From Deltaproteobacteria bacterium (lineage in GTDB: Bacteria; Myxococcota; B64-G9): a stretch of 12,273 nucleotides of DNA. Shown here piece after piece: positions 1 through 8,139 of the stretch (positions are counted from its first letter, which is position 1; the number at the start of each line of letters is the position of its first letter). The notes beneath the pieces are model-generated. The model saw nothing but the letters and a program-made list of their open reading frames with translations. It was not told where the DNA came from and made no database searches. Made by a program: the position numbers and the translations under genes. The stretch is taken from the NCBI GenBank assembly GCA_019307065.1, contig JAFDKH010000161.1, positions 1-12,273 on the forward strand, in the 5' to 3' direction.

Positions 1-314
1 CCTCGGGCAAGGCCGTCATCCGGGCCGATAGCCTGCATATCCTCGACAGTGTGATCGACGTGCTGGTCAATAAACCGCGCATCAAAAAGATTCGCATCGA
101 GGGCCACACCGACAGCATGGGCTCGAACAGATCCAACATGTCCTTGAGCCAGAGACGGGCCGAAGCGGTGCGCGACTATATGTACCAGCAGGGAATATAC
201 GAAGGCCGCCTGACCGCTCAGGGCTTCGGCGAAGAAAAACCGATTGCGCCCAACAGTACCCGTCGGGGCCGGGCCCAGAATCGCCGAGTCGAATTTATTA
301 TCATCGAACAATAG
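1..314 (+). CDS. OmpA/MotB-family peptidoglycan-binding C-terminal domain protein; 5' end lies outside the window (reading frame begins at nt 3)
   Basis: In-frame translation from nt 3 gives SGKAVIRADSLHILDSVIDVLVNKPRIKKIRIEGHTDSMGSNRSNMSLSQRRAEAVRDYMYQQGIYEGRLTAQGFGEEKPIAPNSTRRGRAQNRRVEFIIIEQ*. The GHTD...G....N..LS.RRA..V...L.....R....G.GE..P......R..NRRVE pattern is the OmpA_C-like signature. There is no start codon before nt 51, so the M at 51 is internal. Confidence 0.8.
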   Translation, partial: SGKAVIRADSLHILDSVIDVLVNKPRIKKIRIEGHTDSMGSNRSNMSLSQRRAEAVRDYMYQQGIYEGRLTAQGFGEEKPIAPNSTRRGRAQNRRVEFIIIEQ

Positions 315-361: not shown

Positions 362-3300
362 CTACTTGGCTTGCTCGACCGACATCCCCTTGACGCGCTT
401 CTGAAAGAAGTTCATCGACTCGTCGGTGGGCTTGAGTAGCTCTCCGTCGATCACATCGTCGTCGAAATCGATAACGGTTTTCTTTTTATACTTAGGCGCG
501 GGTTGGGGCGGCCGGTCCTTGCCATCCAGATCGTCTTCGGACCCTTCAGTACCGCGGTAAAGACCGAATGAGCCGTTGTGCTGGGCGATTACGGTTACGG
601 TTCCCATGATATTTTCTGCGATGAAGATTCCGCGCAGGTCGGTTTTTCCGGCGATGAAGCGATCGTCGTCCGAGCCCTTGAGCTGAACCCGGGCGCCGGA
701 GATCGGCTTGCCGCGGTTGGTGCGCACGGTTACGCGTACCCGGCCCTCGTCGTGATCCTCGGTGACGTCGGTGGCCAGCGAGCCGTTGAGTGCCAGTGAA
801 TACAGCAGCTGGTGGCCCCCGCGCACCAGCAGCAAATATGCGCCCTTGCCGGGCAGGCGCAGCTTGTGCTTGATTTCGCGGGTCACCCCGATTTGTTTTG
901 GATAGCGGATAGTCTGATTCAAGACCGGACGAATTCCGGCCAGATTGATTTCAGTCAGGTCGCTCAAAGAACCCTTGAGTTGATACAACCTCATCGGGTC
1001 GACTCGATAGGCGCGTAGATTGATTCGTTCGAGATTGCGCATGGTCATCGTAAGGATCGGGCGCTGCCCGGCCGCAACCGAGACAATCTCGGGCACTACA
1101 AGTAGCTGGCGTTCAGATTCACGGATTGTCTCCCAGGCGTCGCGGAATCGGTCTTGTACCTGGCGATAGAGAGCCAGGGCCTGACTCATCTGACCGCGCG
1201 AGTGATGAATCTGGGCCATTATGTAACGGGCCATTTCGCGGCTTTCCTCATCGGGTGAATCTTTGGCGACTTGCTGGCAAAGTTTCAAAGAAGGTCCGTA
1301 CTGTCCCAGCTTGAAATGAGCGAAGGCCTTGAGATATGCCATGGCCGGTGCCAAATCCGATTCGGGATGCCGTTTGAGGCCGGTGTCACACCACTCGGCC
1401 GCCTGGCCCGCCCGGCCGCGTTCCAGCAGGGCTGAAGCCAGAGAATATATTGCCGGCGGGCCCTGGGGGTCGGTCGGGAAATAGCCCAGGTAGCGCGCCA
1501 TCAACCAGATGACTTCCTCGAGCAGGCCGGGACGATCGAAACCTTCGGGCTTGTCTCCCTGGCGGGCCTGATCGGCGCGGGCGAAAACAACCTGGCTGAA
1601 GGCGTAGGTCGCCTGAGCGGCCGGGCGGTTGTCGGGATAAGAGTTGAGTTGTTCTTTTAGCATGGCGATTGCCTCGGCCATTTCGTCTTCGGTCTCGAGA
1701 ATGCCGACGTTATGTACCTCGGACATAAAGCGCGCCTCGGCTACTCCACGGGCCAGCAGCAGGCCGGCTTCGTAGGCCTTGACCGTTCGGTAGGCCGCCT
1801 GGACCGGGGCGATTTTTGCAAATGGAATGACAAGATCGGGGTTCTTTTCTTTGGCCAGTTCGAAATATTTGACGATTCTCTGCTGATCGTTTTTATCGAT
1901 TGACGCGAACAATAGTTTGGCCAGAACATTGCGGGCGATATTTTCGTTCAGTTTGTAGTGGTTGTTGAGCGACTCGAGTTTCAAGATGCACAGCTCGGCA
2001 TCTTTCTCTTCAGCCGCCGCCAGGCCGACTAAGTACAATTCGTCGGGAGTCGGACGAACGTCGTCCAGGGTAGCGCTAGCCCCGTCGATAGTGAAAGCAG
2101 TCGAATCGGAGACTACCCGGGTCTTGGGATTGGCCAGGGATACCAGCCTGAGTGGCGGAAACTGATAGACTCCCGGGTTGATTGCTTGAAGTTGATACTG
2201 AACCTGCTGGTGATAGCCGGCCGAGGCCATGAAGAAAACCAGTTGGCGGCCGGCCTGCTGCATATGCGAGTGGTTGCCGCTCAACGAGCCGGGTACCAGC
2301 TCGAAACCGGGTGGCAGCCGATCGGATAAAACACAGTGATCGATGCGTGGGGCGAAATCACGCTGGATCTTGAGAGTCACCTTGATGCGCCGGGTAGCCG
2401 GAATGTGATCGATCTTGTTGACCCAGGTCTCTTCACCGGGGGCCAGGACGCTGAATCCAGCATTAATGTCATGGCCCTTGTACGGCAGGGGTACCGGTTC
2501 GATGGTTCTGGAAAGCTTGATCGGATCGTTTTTTGTATTTTCTTTGGCTTTTTTCCGATAGCCGCTCAGGGTGGCAGTGAAGAAGCAGCTGCCGCTGCCC
2601 TCCAGACTCAGTTCGATTTTGTTCTCGCCCGGCCTCAGAACTTGCGCCGCGACGTTGACTTGTTCGGTAGGGTTGCCGGCCTGGCCGCTGATTTGAACAG
2701 TTTTTACTTGTTGGCCGTTGACCGCAACTTTGACCCGGTAGCGTTGGCCAGATTTTTCGGCACCCAAAAGCCTTCGCAAGGCGGCCGAGACTGCCTCGGC
2801 TTCACGCGGAAATCTGAACCCGACAGCTTCGCCCTGGTCGAGCAGCCACTTGGCGCCTTTTTTAACCAGGGGATCGTTGGGGCGGGTAAGCGCCAGCAGT
2901 TCGAGCGCACGCGCCAGGTCGGCCGGTTCGGCTCCCCAGGTTGGCAGCCAGGCATATGCCCTCGGGCAGGGCACGTTGAATCGAACCTTGGCCATCAGGC
3001 TTTTAGCGACTTCGGCGGCTTTCTCGGGTCGTTTGAGGGCGTGCCAGGTCAGCCCCAGAAGCGCCTGGGCCCCCAGCGGGAGTGTGTTTCTCAAACGATG
3101 CAGACGGTGCAGGTGAACTACCGGGACGTGCTCTTTACCTTCGTGGGCCAAAGCATAGAGAATTGCAGCCCGCTGCATGAAGTCGTCGGGAGGCAGACCG
3201 GGCAGGCCGTTCTTGACGATTGTCAAGGCGCGCCCGTAACTTGCTTGCGGGAAACTCCAACTCAACTGACCGGCCAAGGGTTTGGCCCTGGCCAGGGCCC

Positions 3301-6300
3301 TGATTGCCCGGGCGGTGATTATCAAGCTTGTCGAACTCGAGCCCTGGCCCCAGCCCCAGCCGCCGTCTGCTCTCTGTACTAGAAGCAGATGGACCAATGC
3401 GCGCCGCAAGCGAGCTCTAACCATGCTGAGCATGGCCTGGTCGGCTTTTGGGTCGAGTAACTCGAGAATGTTCAGGGCCGCCAGGGCTTCTTCCGGGCGA
3501 TCGTTGAATAAGACCGGATCGAGCCGGCCGGCCAGAAATAGATGGGTCATGCGGGGGTCGAGCCGGATCAAAAGTTCAAGATCGCCGATCTCTTTGTCAA
3601 GAGTCAAAATTCGCGTGGCACTCCTGGTCAGCCGGCCGGAGACCGATACGTCCTCGCGAATACCGCGTGGTCGGACCGGCAGTTTACGCAGCAGTCTGTC
3701 GGCCAGATCTCCTGCGTCGGCCGTCAGCAGCAGCTCGAGTTTGGCGCCCGGAGCACTGTCGGGAATTTCGAGCGAGTCGAAAAGAACTTCGGCCGTCTGG
3801 GCCGCGGCTACCTTGGCCTGGCGCGAGATCTTACGGCCGGCAACAGTCAGCTCGAGCTTGACGCTCAGATCTTTCTTGCTTTCGTTGAACAAACGCGCCA
3901 GGGGCTGCAGACGATCACCTTCTTCAAGTTCGGGCGGGACTACCAATTCGGCCCAGAATTCTTGGGTCGCGATCAGTTCGGTTGTTTCTTCGCCCAGTTG
4001 AGTGTCCCTGGTTACACCCCGGGCGGTTACCTTCCAACTGGTGATCGAATCCGGCAGGCGGAAAGTAACCGAAGCGACTCCGTCGGGGCCGGTCCGAACC
4101 TCGGGAAAGAAAGTCGAGGTTTGATCGAAAGTTTTCCTGAGCGGGGCCATGCCCAATCGGGATGCCTGGCCCATTCGTATACTGGCCCGGCCGCCGCCTC
4201 CGCGGCCGTAGCCGCGGGTGCCCAGTCCGCCGTAACCCATGCCCGAGCCGGCCCCGCCCATATGGATGCTGGGTACGTTGGCCAGCCTGGCGAATTGTTC
4301 GGAGGCTTCTTCGGTCATTTCCTTTCGCCTGGCACTCAAGGCGGTCATCGCGGCTGATCCTTCGGTCTGAAGAATTTCAGCTTTTTCAATCTGGCTGGCC
4401 ATGGCTTCGGGAAACCTGAATGTATTCGAAGAGGTGGTGTAAACATTTCCTTCCGGGCGCAAGTAATGGAAAGTCGAGATCAGATCCGGCAGGTTTTCGG
4501 GGAAGATCTTGAGCAGGGCCTTGTCGACAACCGTAACGATCAAACGCGCGTCGACCGGTTTGTCGTCGAAGTCTTTGGCGATCAATGTCAGACTGACTTC
4601 GTCGCCGGGCTGGTAACGCATTTTGTCCGGGCGAATGGTGATTTTCAGCTTGCGGGCTACGCGCACCGAGCGCGAGGCCGAGTGGAACTTGTCGCCGTCC
4701 ATGGCGGCCGCGGCCAGCGTGAAATTGGGTACCAGCTTTTCAGTCATCGGAATGTCGAGGGTGTTGATGCCTTTGACGACTTTCAAAGTTCGATAGTCGA
4801 TGATCTGGTCGGTTTCGAAGGTCAGCAGGATGAGGGCTTTTTCCATGCGCGAGTTGATCGTCAAGCGCGCAGGTGTTCCCAGAGTTTGTTGATTGCGTGC
4901 CAGATCGAGAAAGAACCCGGGTTCTTCGACGCCGATTGTGTTCAGCCCGAGCTCGGCTGTAATCGGATGTTGGTTGAGGTCGTGGCCAAAAATCCTGACG
5001 ATGTGGCTGCCGCCTTCGGGTAAAGTGATCGGGACTCGCAGAATACCGTCGGCCGGAACAGACAGTTCTTTTTCGACGACTCTGACTTCACCGGAGGTTC
5101 TACTCAGGCGGCGCAAAACGGTCAGTCTAAGCCGGGCCGAGCGGGGCTTGTTGTCCGGGCCGGAAACTTTAATTGTCAGGTCGAAGGGCTGGCCGGCGAA
5201 GAGGTTTTTCTGTTCGACTTGTAAATCGACCTCATAACCTTGAACGGCCACCAGGGCCTGGGCGCTATGGATCAGATTGTGCTTGGGCAAGTTGACATTG
5301 ACTACCGCTACCTGGGTGGATTCGAACCCGCGGGTCGGGAAAGAAAAAGCGACCTCGCCCTTTTTATTGCTGGTGGCCTCTTTCCAGACCGATGAACTGG
5401 ACAGCCGGTACCCGATTTTCATAAAAGGCGCCGCCGAACCGTTACGGTGACGTACACGGATTGTGCCCTTGAGCAGGTCGCCTCTGAAGACGACTGCCTG
5501 GTCGAAATCGACTATCAGATCGAAGGGATTCAAGCGATAGGCCGAGACATTAAAACTGCCGCTGAAGGTCGCGCCCTTGTGGCCCCGCAGCGTGAAGTAG
5601 TAGCGCCCGGGGGTAGCGGCTTTGTCGAGAGTGAACTTGTGATTGAAGACTCCAAACTCATCGAGGCTGACTTTGGTTTTGACCAGTTCTATGCGGGCTG
5701 GTGAAAAAACCGAAAGCTCGCATTGGCTCTTGGCTTCGAAAGTCGGGTAGCCGGCCGGGTTCCAGCGGTCGCGCACGATCCCGGCTATGCCAACCGGGTT
5801 GCCCGGCCTATAAGCCGGGCGGTCGGAAAGCAAAAAACCTCGGGCGGTCCCGGCGGTTTCCGGTTGTCCGGTCTGCGGGTCAATTTGGTTCCAGGCTATC
5901 TGGTCGCCGCTGATTGCCAGGGCGCGCAGTCCTTCAAGATCTTCATCGGCAGGTAGGGCGGCGCTGAAGACGCCATCAGAACCGGTTTTGCCCTCGACGA
6001 CTATTTTTTTACCTGAGCCGATTACCACTCGGACACCCGGGTAGGGTTTGGTCTCTTTCAGATTCTGGCTGAAGACGAACAACCGCCCCGGAGTAGTCTT
6101 CATGATCATTCCCAGATCTGAAACGATGACTGCCGTGGTGGCCTCCATCTCTTTAGTGCTCAAATGAACCAGGTAGAGCCCCGGGTTTTTGATCCTCAAG
6201 GGAACCTTCTGAGTAATGCGCTCATATTTTTGAAATTTCTCGACCGGGACAGTCCAGGTCTGATCGGGTGTGCAAAGCGCGATATCGACATTGGTGACCT

Positions 6301-7942
6301 GATCCATCTCCAGGCGATCGCGGAAGAAGTCCTCGGCCTCGATCCGGTACAGGCGCATTTCGATCGCTTCGAGATTGCGGACGTGCCAGGTAAGCTCAGG
6401 AGTCACACCGATTCTGAAGGTCGGCGGAGATTCGACTACCAGGCTGGGTTCGTCCAGGGCCGCCAGGCGAGCGGCGGCCTGATAGCTTCCGCCCGGAGAT
6501 TTTGTGGCTTGCTTGTAGGCTTCCCTGGCTTTTACAAAATCGCGACGTTTCTCTTCGAACAGCAGGCCGGTCTGATAAAAACCGGCCGCGGCCAGCTTGT
6601 CTTTGGGAAATTTGCCGGTCAGCGTTGAAAAGAGTGTCAGAGCTTCTTTTACACTACCCAATTCAGCCTGAGCCTGGCCGGCATTCAGCAGGGCCTGAGG
6701 AGTTCGTGTTGCAGTTGGGTAGGTATTAGAAAATCCGGAAAAGAGTTCAGCCGCTGGTTTCCATTTCTTGTCATTGTAGGCCAGCAAGGCTTCATTCCAG
6801 GCCATGTCTTCGATGCCTTTGAGGGCCTGCAGCCAGTGCCCGTCCGAGGGATGTTCTTTCAAATAGCTGCGCCAGGCTTCTCCTGCTGCGCTGAACTTTT
6901 CCTGGGCGGCCAGACAGACGCCCAGGTGGTACCTGGCAGTGGCCAGGTTTTCTTCGGGTCCGTTGGCTGCGATGTACTCGTTCAGCGACTCTATGGCTTC
7001 GGCATGTCGGCCGGCATGAAAAGCCGCCATGGCCAGTTCCAGGCGGGCTTGTTCGACGCGTTTGTTCTTGGGGTAAGTTTCGATGAACTTGCGCAAAGCC
7101 GCCTGTCCCCAGATCAGATCAAAACCGCTCTTGGGTTTGGGCATCGAGTAGGTCCTGGTCAGCCCGAAGGCCGCCCTGGCGGCGTAGACCGTGCGGGCAT
7201 GTTCAGCCAATAGATCGCGCAAGTAACGCCTCGCAGCGACGCCGTTTTTGGCCTCGATAAAAGCTTCGGCGGCCAAGTACCTGGCTTCGGCCAGCCGGGG
7301 AGAGTCTTTGTATTTGTCGCAAAAGGCGACCAGGTGATTGGCTGCCTCGCCAAAGCGTTTTTGCTTGGACAGACAACGGGCGATTTTGATCTCGGTCTCT
7401 TCGTCCAGCTTGCCGCTAATGCCGGTTTCTAAAGCGGCCATATAAAACTGTTGAGCCCGGGCAGGTTCGGCGGCGTTCTTGCCTTCGGGCGGCTCGAGAT
7501 GTTCATCGCCCAGCAGAATGAAGCGGGCGGCGATTCGCTCGAGGCGTTGATTCGAAGTGAGGTTTGTAAGCGCTTTGGAAAAAAGCTCTTCGGCCGATTT
7601 GAAACGACCGGTTGCGGCCTGGCATTCGGCCATGCCAAAGGTCGCTTTTTGGGCAAGGTAAGATCCCTTTGGTGCTTTTTTCTTGGCGGCCGCGTAGGCA
7701 TTTTCTGCGGCTTTATAGCTTTTGGCCAGGTACAGCGCACGCCCCTTGGTGAGCAATGCCAGGCTGGCATGCTTTTTGGGGCCCGAGCGCAAGCCGTTCA
7801 AGATCGAGGCGGCCTTTGAGGTATCACCGCGAGCCATGGCCCGAAAAGCATCCTGAATCGGTCCGGCCTGAGAGTGCGCCGGAAGCGCCAGCAGCGTAGC
7901 TGCGAAAACCACAGATACAACAACCCTAAGTCCGTGCCGCAT
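362..7942 (-). CDS. Giant secreted alpha-2-macroglobulin-family protein (thioester-less) with N- and C-terminal TPR-like arrays and a C-terminal carboxypeptidase-regulatory-like beta-sandwich; 2526 aa
   Basis: 7.6-kb uninterrupted ORF. The start ATG at 7940-7942 is preceded by AAGGAGAG 6 nt upstream, and the ORF's first ATG at 8029 has no SD. N-terminus MRHGLRVVVSVVFAATLLALPAHS-QAG is a Sec signal peptide with no Cys. A2M-family motifs are read directly: SDRPAYRPGNPV (nt 5792-5824, A2M_N), FNVSAYRLNPFDLIVDFDQ (A2M_N_2), RLPDSITSWKVTA (nt 4034-4054, A2M domain PDSITTW motif), QRADGGWGWGQG (nt 3344-3367, TED-like alpha/alpha toroid). A C-terminal RBD/MG8-like segment reads DHCVLSDRLPPGFELV. There is no C-x-E-Q anywhere in the protein. 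Confidence 0.85.
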   Translation of the reverse strand: MRHGLRVVVSVVFAATLLALPAHSQAGPIQDAFRAMARGDTSKAASILNGLRSGPKKHASLALLTKGRALYLAKSYKAAENAYAAAKKKAPKGSYLAQKATFGMAECQAATGRFKSAEELFSKALTNLTSNQRLERIAARFILLGDEHLEPPEGKNAAEPARAQQFYMAALETGISGKLDEETEIKIARCLSKQKRFGEAANHLVAFCDKYKDSPRLAEARYLAAEAFIEAKNGVAARRYLRDLLAEHARTVYAARAAFGLTRTYSMPKPKSGFDLIWGQAALRKFIETYPKNKRVEQARLELAMAAFHAGRHAEAIESLNEYIAANGPEENLATARYHLGVCLAAQEKFSAAGEAWRSYLKEHPSDGHWLQALKGIEDMAWNEALLAYNDKKWKPAAELFSGFSNTYPTATRTPQALLNAGQAQAELGSVKEALTLFSTLTGKFPKDKLAAAGFYQTGLLFEEKRRDFVKAREAYKQATKSPGGSYQAAARLAALDEPSLVVESPPTFRIGVTPELTWHVRNLEAIEMRLYRIEAEDFFRDRLEMDQVTNVDIALCTPDQTWTVPVEKFQKYERITQKVPLRIKNPGLYLVHLSTKEMEATTAVIVSDLGMIMKTTPGRLFVFSQNLKETKPYPGVRVVIGSGKKIVVEGKTGSDGVFSAALPADEDLEGLRALAISGDQIAWNQIDPQTGQPETAGTARGFLLSDRPAYRPGNPVGIAGIVRDRWNPAGYPTFEAKSQCELSVFSPARIELVKTKVSLDEFGVFNHKFTLDKAATPGRYYFTLRGHKGATFSGSFNVSAYRLNPFDLIVDFDQAVVFRGDLLKGTIRVRHRNGSAAPFMKIGYRLSSSSVWKEATSNKKGEVAFSFPTRGFESTQVAVVNVNLPKHNLIHSAQALVAVQGYEVDLQVEQKNLFAGQPFDLTIKVSGPDNKPRSARLRLTVLRRLSRTSGEVRVVEKELSVPADGILRVPITLPEGGSHIVRIFGHDLNQHPITAELGLNTIGVEEPGFFLDLARNQQTLGTPARLTINSRMEKALILLTFETDQIIDYRTLKVVKGINTLDIPMTEKLVPNFTLAAAAMDGDKFHSASRSVRVARKLKITIRPDKMRYQPGDEVSLTLIAKDFDDKPVDARLIVTVVDKALLKIFPENLPDLISTFHYLRPEGNVYTTSSNTFRFPEAMASQIEKAEILQTEGSAAMTALSARRKEMTEEASEQFARLANVPSIHMGGAGSGMGYGGLGTRGYGRGGGGRASIRMGQASRLGMAPLRKTFDQTSTFFPEVRTGPDGVASVTFRLPDSITSWKVTARGVTRDTQLGEETTELIATQEFWAELVVPPELEEGDRLQPLARLFNESKKDLSVKLELTVAGRKISRQAKVAAAQTAEVLFDSLEIPDSAPGAKLELLLTADAGDLADRLLRKLPVRPRGIREDVSVSGRLTRSATRILTLDKEIGDLELLIRLDPRMTHLFLAGRLDPVLFNDRPEEALAALNILELLDPKADQAMLSMVRARLRRALVHLLLVQRADGGWGWGQGSSSTSLIITARAIRALARAKPLAGQLSWSFPQASYGRALTIVKNGLPGLPPDDFMQRAAILYALAHEGKEHVPVVHLHRLHRLRNTLPLGAQALLGLTWHALKRPEKAAEVAKSLMAKVRFNVPCPRAYAWLPTWGAEPADLARALELLALTRPNDPLVKKGAKWLLDQGEAVGFRFPREAEAVSAALRRLLGAEKSGQRYRVKVAVNGQQVKTVQISGQAGNPTEQVNVAAQVLRPGENKIELSLEGSGSCFFTATLSGYRKKAKENTKNDPIKLSRTIEPVPLPYKGHDINAGFSVLAPGEETWVNKIDHIPATRRIKVTLKIQRDFAPRIDHCVLSDRLPPGFELVPGSLSGNHSHMQQAGRQLVFFMASAGYHQQVQYQLQAINPGVYQFPPLRLVSLANPKTRVVSDSTAFTIDGASATLDDVRPTPDELYLVGLAAAEEKDAELCILKLESLNNHYKLNENIARNVLAKLLFASIDKNDQQRIVKYFELAKEKNPDLVIPFAKIAPVQAAYRTVKAYEAGLLLARGVAEARFMSEVHNVGILETEDEMAEAIAMLKEQLNSYPDNRPAAQATYAFSQVVFARADQARQGDKPEGFDRPGLLEEVIWLMARYLGYFPTDPQGPPAIYSLASALLERGRAGQAAEWCDTGLKRHPESDLAPAMAYLKAFAHFKLGQYGPSLKLCQQVAKDSPDEESREMARYIMAQIHHSRGQMSQALALYRQVQDRFRDAWETIRESERQLLVVPEIVSVAAGQRPILTMTMRNLERINLRAYRVDPMRLYQLKGSLSDLTEINLAGIRPVLNQTIRYPKQIGVTREIKHKLRLPGKGAYLLLVRGGHQLLYSLALNGSLATDVTEDHDEGRVRVTVRTNRGKPISGARVQLKGSDDDRFIAGKTDLRGIFIAENIMGTVTVIAQHNGSFGLYRGTEGSEDDLDGKDRPPQPAPKYKKKTVIDFDDDVIDGELLKPTDESMNFFQKRVKGMSVEQAK
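545..1117 (-). other. C-terminal beta-sandwich module (MG-like plus carboxypeptidase-regulatory-like domain)
   Basis: RVRVTVRTNRGKPISGARVQLKGSDDDRFIAGKTDLRGIFIAENIMGTVTVIAQHNGSF has the CarbopepD_reg / Cna-B-like pattern (G.pi.gA.V.l......tdadG.f......G.y.l). It is followed by a charged tail (nt 362-544). Confidence 0.45.
1130..2032 (-). other. C-terminal TPR-like helical array following the A2M receptor-binding-like domain
   Basis: Helical repeats: NIARNVLAKLLFASIDKNDQQRIVKYFELAKEKNP, AQATYAFSQVVFARADQARQGD, AMAYLKAFAHFKLGQYGPSLKLCQQVAKDSP, ARYIMAQIHHSRGQMSQALALYRQVQDRF. Confidence 0.5.
2750..3712 (-). other. TED-like alpha/alpha-toroid domain lacking the thioester motif
   Basis: Contains LLLVQRADGGWGWGQGSSSTSLIITARAIRALA. 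No Cys-x-Glu-Gln is present in this region or elsewhere in the protein; the only x-E-Q tripeptides are VEQ, SEQ and TEQ, none preceded by Cys. Confidence 0.55.
4133..4258 (-). repeat. Gly/Arg-rich low-complexity insert at the position expected for an A2M bait region
   Basis: Translation is GGAGSGMGYGGLGTRGYGRGGGGRASIRMGQASRLGMAPL. It lies immediately N-terminal to the A2M-domain PDSITSW motif. The nucleotide sequence is GC/GCC-rich. Confidence 0.6.
6455..7864 (-). other. N-terminal TPR-like helical repeat array of the giant protein (~470 aa)
   Basis: Repeated Ala/Leu/Tyr-rich helical pairs with TPR-like spacing, for example YLAKSYKAAENAYAAAKK, ARYLAAEAFIEAKNGVAARRYLRDLL, ARYHLGVCLAAQEKFSAAGEAWRSYLKEHP, AGFYQTGLLFEEKRRDFVKAREAYKQA. 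Assignment is by pattern only. Confidence 0.55.
7871..7942 (-). other. Signal peptide (type I, Sec) of the giant protein
   Basis: MRHGLRVVVSVVFAATLLALPAHS: positively charged n-region, hydrophobic core, A-x-S/A-x-A-like cleavage region. No lipobox Cys. Confidence 0.7.
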
Positions 7943-7982: not shown

Positions 7983-8139
7983 CGGATCAACGATGCATGT
8001 TCGTATGTACGCCTTGAGATTACTGACATATTCCCTCAGACACCTCAAATTAGGGAAGGTTCTCGACGGTGACTGTAAACAAATACATGACCAAAGTCAC
8101 TTCGACGCAGTCTTCCGGAATAACAGGGTTTTGTGTTCA

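Follow-up and report, generated by a model that had tools for sequence, protein, structure and literature searches.

A thioester-less alpha-2-macroglobulin set between two TPR arrays in one exported protein: a member of a widespread bacterial family

To our knowledge, work on bacterial alpha-2-macroglobulins (A2Ms) rests almost solely on ECAM, Sa-A2M and MagD. Characterised bacterial A2Ms are periplasmic; type I members form pairs with PBP1c, a peptidoglycan synthase, and MagD traps protease without a thioester, as seen in the MagD-TB/TEV assay (PMC5764988). A second point of comparison is CAGE, represented by Tetrahymena I7MLD7 (CAGE1) and Dictyostelium AbpF, proteins of ~2,100-2,300 aa. In the published order, alpha domains at the N-terminus precede six beta-sandwiches, of which the sixth is interrupted by an insert of ~130 aa; next comes a split beta domain that encloses an alpha domain, followed by beta, alpha and beta domains in turn. 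The alpha domains of the two termini resemble each other, and domains 4-6 have ECOD matches to YfaS_2nd, A2M_N_2 and MG4. Bacteria (Planctomycetota, Verrucomicrobiota, Myxococcota) account for more than two-thirds of the CAGE homologues, and these bacterial members have signal peptides. CAGE is a hollow D2 homotetramer, and protease trapping was not observed (bioRxiv preprint 10.1101/2025.09.22.677704).

The window analysed here, a DNA stretch of 12,273 nucleotides, carries a single minus-strand ORF from 8029 to 362. With ATG 7942 as the working start the product is 2,526 aa (window 362-7942). A Shine-Dalgarno sequence, AAGGAGAG, lies 6 nt upstream of this ATG, and the start agrees with the N-termini of homologues and with NCBI record MBW1810352.1 (2,526 aa), named 'tetratricopeptide repeat protein'. 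The ATG at 8029 was rejected as start; it has no ribosome-binding site, the signal peptide would be buried, and both the homologues and the NCBI product begin at the equivalent of 7942. The signal peptide, MRHGLRVVVSVVFAATLLALPAHSQA followed by GP, is of the classic type I Sec class, with cleavage after SQA and without a lipobox Cys. The 2,526-aa product is a Sec-exported, soluble protein of an uncultured Myxococcota bacterium. No promoter or terminator was picked up by scans at either end of the gene. The features of the protein and of the adjoining gene are collected in Table 1.

Table 1. Features of the TPR-A2M-TPR gene and its neighbour (positions in the window; aa numbering from ATG 7942).
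Feature	Position	Strand	Evidence
Start codon and Sec type I signal peptide, aa 1-26	7865..7942	-	Sequence, Shine-Dalgarno, homologue N-termini, NCBI product
N-terminal TPR array, aa 28-497, ~25 helices, YbgF/CpoB- and BamD-like	6452..7861	-	Pfam, NCBIfam, AF2
MG1 (aa 500-607, short helical insert) and MG2 (aa 610-684; Pfam bMG3)	5891..6445	-	Pfam, AF2, hhalign
MG3-MG6, aa 701-1157 (Pfam MG2, MG4, A2M_BRD), completing the MG1-MG6 ring	4472..5842	-	Pfam, AF2, Foldseek
Bait, aa 1158-1278: charged helical stretch, then Gly-rich stretch, conserved flanks	4109..4471	-	31 homologues
MG7, aa 1279-1380 (Pfam A2M)	3803..4108	-	Pfam A2M 54 bits; human A2M and ECAM align here
CUB (aa 1401-1462, 1735-1816) with nested TED alpha/alpha toroid (aa 1465-1725); no CxEQ, thioester loop deleted	2495..3742	-	
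MG8 / bMG10-like, aa 1846-1953	2084..2407	-	Weak Pfam bMG10 match; aligns with last domain of ECAM and Sa-A2M; Foldseek to 4ziu
C-terminal TPR array, aa 1966-2277, 16 helices, paralogue of distal N-terminal array	1112..2047	-	
MG1' (aa 2280-2396, same helical insert as MG1) and MG2' (aa 2401-2463; CarboxypepD_reg-like match)	554..1105	-	BLASTP, hhalign, AF2
Disordered charged linker and conserved tail, aa 2464-2526	365..553	-	NCBIfam, alignment, AF2
3' end of convergent OmpA-family peptidoglycan-binding gene	1..314	+	Pfam OmpA E=3e-24

The order along the chain is Sec signal peptide, N-terminal TPR array, MG1-MG6 ring, bait, MG7, CUB/TED/CUB, MG8, second TPR array, two beta-sandwiches and tail. 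The first-pass annotation had proposed the succession TPR, A2M, TPR, beta-sandwich, CarboxypepD_reg-like domain and tail, with a Sec signal peptide directly ahead of the first array, and this was borne out by Pfam and AF2. The signal peptide ends at aa 26 and the array begins at aa 28; Pfam TPR families score above cut-off in both flanking helical regions, as do bMG3, MG2, A2M_BRD and A2M in the central region. The A2M core, placed earlier at aa 535-1985, lies near the boundaries found here, aa 498-1953. The AF2 models are of monomer fragments (pLDDT 84-87) with pTM values of 0.59-0.66, hence their inter-domain packing is only moderately confident.

In the N-terminal array, Pfam TPR_19, TPR_16, TPR_6 and YfiO are all above cut-off over aa ~70-500, and AF2 gives 25 helices (aa 28-497) at pLDDT ~90. 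In the C-terminal array TPR_14 and ANAPC3 are above cut-off at aa 2157-2215, and 16 helices were modelled across aa 1966-2277. The NCBIfam model tol_pal_ybgF (TIGR02795) matches with 121 bits, above its cut-off, and the BamD model with 71 bits; each of them also matches all nine of the nine close homologues. CpoB and YbgF are the top PDB matches in a single-sequence search, and the C-terminal TPR domain of TPR_6 type that marks YbgF/CpoB (TIGR02795) is present. The protein is nevertheless not CpoB proper, being 2,526 aa long against ~260 aa and scoring 46 bits with NF008068 against a cut-off of 383, with no tol/pal genes nearby. The repeat type (TPR_6/YfiO) is thus common to YbgF/CpoB, BamD and the arrays described here, whereas these arrays comprise ~12 and ~8 repeats and are fused to an A2M, and the CpoB coiled coil, the BamD lipobox and a tol-pal or bam gene context are lacking.

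The A2M core contains the parts expected of the superfamily, apart from the thioester. In the MG1-MG6 ring, Pfam bMG3 and MG2 are above cut-off and MG4 slightly under it. Six beta-sandwiches were modelled by AF2 across aa 500-1123, and Foldseek aligned ~615 columns with C3/C5 beta chains at TM 0.53-0.56. An insert at the bait position in MG6 is followed by MG7 (A2M_BRD at aa 1020-1145, A2M at aa 1278-1365). This bait, 121 aa here, varies from 108 to 321 aa among 31 homologues and is hypervariable in sequence between its conserved flanks. A CUB domain with a nested TED toroid, and then MG8, complete the body. The CxEQ thioester motif of TED is absent, its loop being deleted in the alignment; the motif is likewise missing in 229 of the 232 full-length relatives and kept in the other three. 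The relative P0029 has kept GCVEQT and has both flanking modules. With the family profile, ECAM is recovered at E=3e-59 and Sa-A2M at E=2e-57.

Comparison with the described A2Ms, for which E. coli yfhM-pbpC and yfaPQSTA served as reference operons, places the protein nearer to type II. The MG/CUB/TED/MG8 body is common to it and to type I ECAM/YfhM and Salmonella Sa-A2M (PDB 5a42, 4ziq, 4u48). Type I, however, combines thioester, lipoprotein anchor and adjacent pbpC; here there is no CxEQ in place of the CLEQ thioester of ECAM and Sa-A2M, no lipobox or other Cys in the signal peptide, and no pbpC in the window or the related contexts inspected. The type II combination of bait present and thioester absent was found, and the family core profile scores E. 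coli YfaS at 343 bits against 208 bits for YfhM. Type II YfaS and Pseudomonas aeruginosa MagD resemble the protein in having a bait, no CxEQ, periplasmic export (predicted here) and no lipid anchor of their own. They differ from it in several respects. The TPR-A2M-TPR protein is ~900-1,000 aa longer, with a TPR array ahead of MG1 and a TPR+MG+MG module after MG8, and its bait is far longer (up to 321 aa in relatives). It is also without the six-gene mag/yfaPQSTA operon, in which MagD is stabilised by partners such as MagB: neither yfaP/Q/T/A genes nor DUF2135, DUF2300, DUF1175 or DUF2138 were among the neighbours in the contexts inspected. The protein is a complete A2M, and the lineage it falls in is type II: YfaS/MagD-like and without thioester. 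Profile searches show ECAM and Sa-A2M stopping at the domain that aligns with its MG8. The first-pass annotation did not recognise the domain order from any characterised A2M, and this holds: none of ECAM/YfhM, Sa-A2M and YfaS/MagD has it.

The C-terminal module is colinear with the N-terminal TPR+MG1+MG2 cassette (BLASTP E=4e-9); hhalign of the two gave a probability of 100%, E=2.7e-41 and 446 colinear columns. On these alignments the C-terminal TPR array and its two beta-sandwiches are an internal duplicate of the cassette. This implies that an ancestral N-terminal cassette (TPR, MG1 and MG2) was duplicated and the copy added after MG8. Because a thioester-positive relative with the same layout, P0029, exists, the thioester would have been lost later in most of the family. 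The duplication thus offers a concrete evolutionary scenario, with P0029 as its reference point. The CarboxypepD_reg-like domain of the first-pass annotation is present as a domain, but its match is below threshold (23 bits against a cut-off of 32) and it is better described as an MG2 copy, since it aligns with the N-terminal MG2; a separate functional CarboxypepD_reg module was rejected. The absence of the thioester and the duplication of the cassette had both been missed in that annotation. The tail carries a CglF/GltF-like motif at aa 2476-2510 and ends in KGMSVEQAK-COOH. The terminal motif is fixed in position and conserved across phyla, with G at -8 in 195 of 232 full-length relatives. 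AF2 assigns the last ~20 aa a pLDDT of ~83 and the preceding linker <45.

Domain content, models and the precedent of known A2Ms point, with about even confidence on our part, to a protease trap that works non-covalently in the periplasm and has built-in arms for docking or closure. A protease reaching the periplasm would cut the long, exposed, fast-evolving bait. The MG ring/CUB/TED body would then shift conformation, as other A2Ms do, and the protease would be retained non-covalently, for which the MagD experiments are the precedent. The TPR arms, the MG1'-MG2' pair and the C-terminal peptide may supply within one chain what other bacterial A2Ms source elsewhere, ECAM from a lipid anchor and thioester and MagD from the separate subunits MagA/B/F. 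They could serve to dock the protein to a partner in the envelope, to close the trap, or to let the protein associate with itself head to tail. A candidate partner in Myxococcota is the OmpA-like, peptidoglycan-binding protein encoded by the syntenic gene. Loss of the thioester could, on the other hand, mean that the inhibitor function was lost too. As all accessory parts reside in one polypeptide, the family should provide a simpler system for how a thioester-less A2M holds its protease and what anchors an A2M in the envelope.

The likeness to CAGE bears on this proposal. Compared by published domain order only, the two agree in how alpha and beta domain types succeed one another over a chain of >2,000 aa. 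In either protein the helical domains at the two ends are alike; the beta-sandwiches of CAGE are A2M-type, and bacterial CAGE members with signal peptides occur in Planctomycetota and Myxococcota. Since CAGE shows no observed protease trapping, a CAGE-like domain order allows a different role. The arms, extra beta-sandwiches and C-terminal peptide might build a hollow periplasmic homo-oligomer for transport, chaperoning or sequestration, not bait-triggered inhibition. The paralogy of the N- and C-terminal modules and the position-fixed C-terminal motif conserved across phyla fit such a container as well, yet it is regarded as unlikely. PDB 11KS and 11KT were not among the matches of the profile and Foldseek searches. 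The best ~1,900 CAGE homologues are 2,050-2,320 aa long, mostly named 'hypothetical protein', and include no Isosphaeraceae TPR-A2M-TPR members. CAGE proteins are also ~300-500 aa shorter, mostly without Pfam matches and with no reported bait, and have many eukaryotic members, whereas none is eukaryotic among the named TPR-A2M-TPR homologues. That A2M domains detectable by Pfam and a hypervariable bait have been kept argues for a retained bait-dependent function and against a container of this kind. The same analogy suggests, as a tentative idea with little more than an outside chance, that the TPR-A2M-TPR family is an A2M-proximal bacterial sister or ancestor-like form of CAGE, whose cassettes and C-terminal peptide would drive a hollow periplasmic oligomer caging proteases without a thioester. 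If true, this would account for target trapping by type II A2Ms and for the origin of CAGE. If the parallel is homology, the 'new structural archetype' would be tied to the A2M superfamily and a function for CAGE suggested.

The protein is no one-off: it is one of a large family, so far uncharacterised, that is widespread among bacteria. With the C-terminal module alone as query and a threshold of E<=1e-30, at least 350 clusters at 50% identity were found, essentially all with the module at the C-terminus of proteins of 2,400-3,000 aa. The hosts span at least five phyla: Myxococcota, Planctomycetota, Sumerlaeota, Armatimonadota and Spirochaetota. In cultured Isosphaeraceae (Planctomycetota) with complete genomes the protein is labelled 'MG2 domain-containing protein'. 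The rarity implied by the first-pass annotation is contradicted by these numbers. Its alternative, that the architecture would prove common and already annotated, applies in part: the proteins are common and deposited, but their names are generic ('TPR repeat protein', 'MG2 domain-containing protein', even 'BamD') and no description of the architecture was found in the literature searched. Flanking TPR parts encoded as separate genes, which it had suggested looking for, were never seen; the exhaustive module search yielded no stand-alone module, and shorter matches look like contig-edge fragments. TPR-A2M-TPR proteins thus represent a third bacterial A2M architecture, large, phylogenetically broad and present in culturable Isosphaeraceae.

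A full 694-aa CarboxypepD_reg/PEGA/OmpA gene occupies the place of the convergent OmpA-family gene in nine related loci, so that, with the window included, an OmpA-like neighbour adjoins in 10 of 13 assessable Myxococcota loci. This convergent synteny, confined to Myxococcota, may be lineage inertia. Operon partners common to several phyla were not found in the contexts inspected. MltA adjoins the gene in a Phycisphaerae locus, and a secreted papain-like peptidase gene lies directly upstream of the orthologue at locus L002.

The OmpA-like and MltA neighbours, taken with the TPR type, could suggest an envelope scaffold or regulator, in which the TPR arms link peptidoglycan, Tol-Pal or OmpA-type machinery and the A2M body is a spacer or damage sensor. 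The tol_pal_ybgF and PDB matches, the conserved OmpA-like gene, the adjoining MltA and the pairing of type I A2Ms with PBP1c are consistent with it. The YbgF score, however, adds up over 4-5 TPR_6 repeats of a generic kind; the protein lacks CpoB's N-terminal coiled coil, the gene has no tol-pal operon context, and no neighbour is kept from one phylum to the next. That ~1,450 aa of A2M machinery, intact and conserved and furnished with a bait, should serve as a spacer is difficult to account for, and this role is considered improbable.

A signal peptide without a membrane anchor would also suit a secreted or surface factor of a predatory or particle-attached lifestyle, acting as an adhesin or as an extracellular decoy for competitors' proteases. 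Large secretomes in the host phyla Myxococcota and Planctomycetota, the tail motif that Myxococcota members have in common with the gliding-machinery protein CglF/GltF, and the peptidase gene at L002 would agree with this. Against it, Pfam and NCBIfam matches include no recognisable signal for outer-membrane translocation (T9SS C-terminal domain, MYXO-CTERM, autotransporter or T1SS motif), and it is thought very unlikely. Its TPRs are of types known from periplasmic proteins, and characterised bacterial A2Ms are periplasmic (PMC5764988). From its sequence features, the most likely cellular site of the TPR-A2M-TPR protein is the periplasm.

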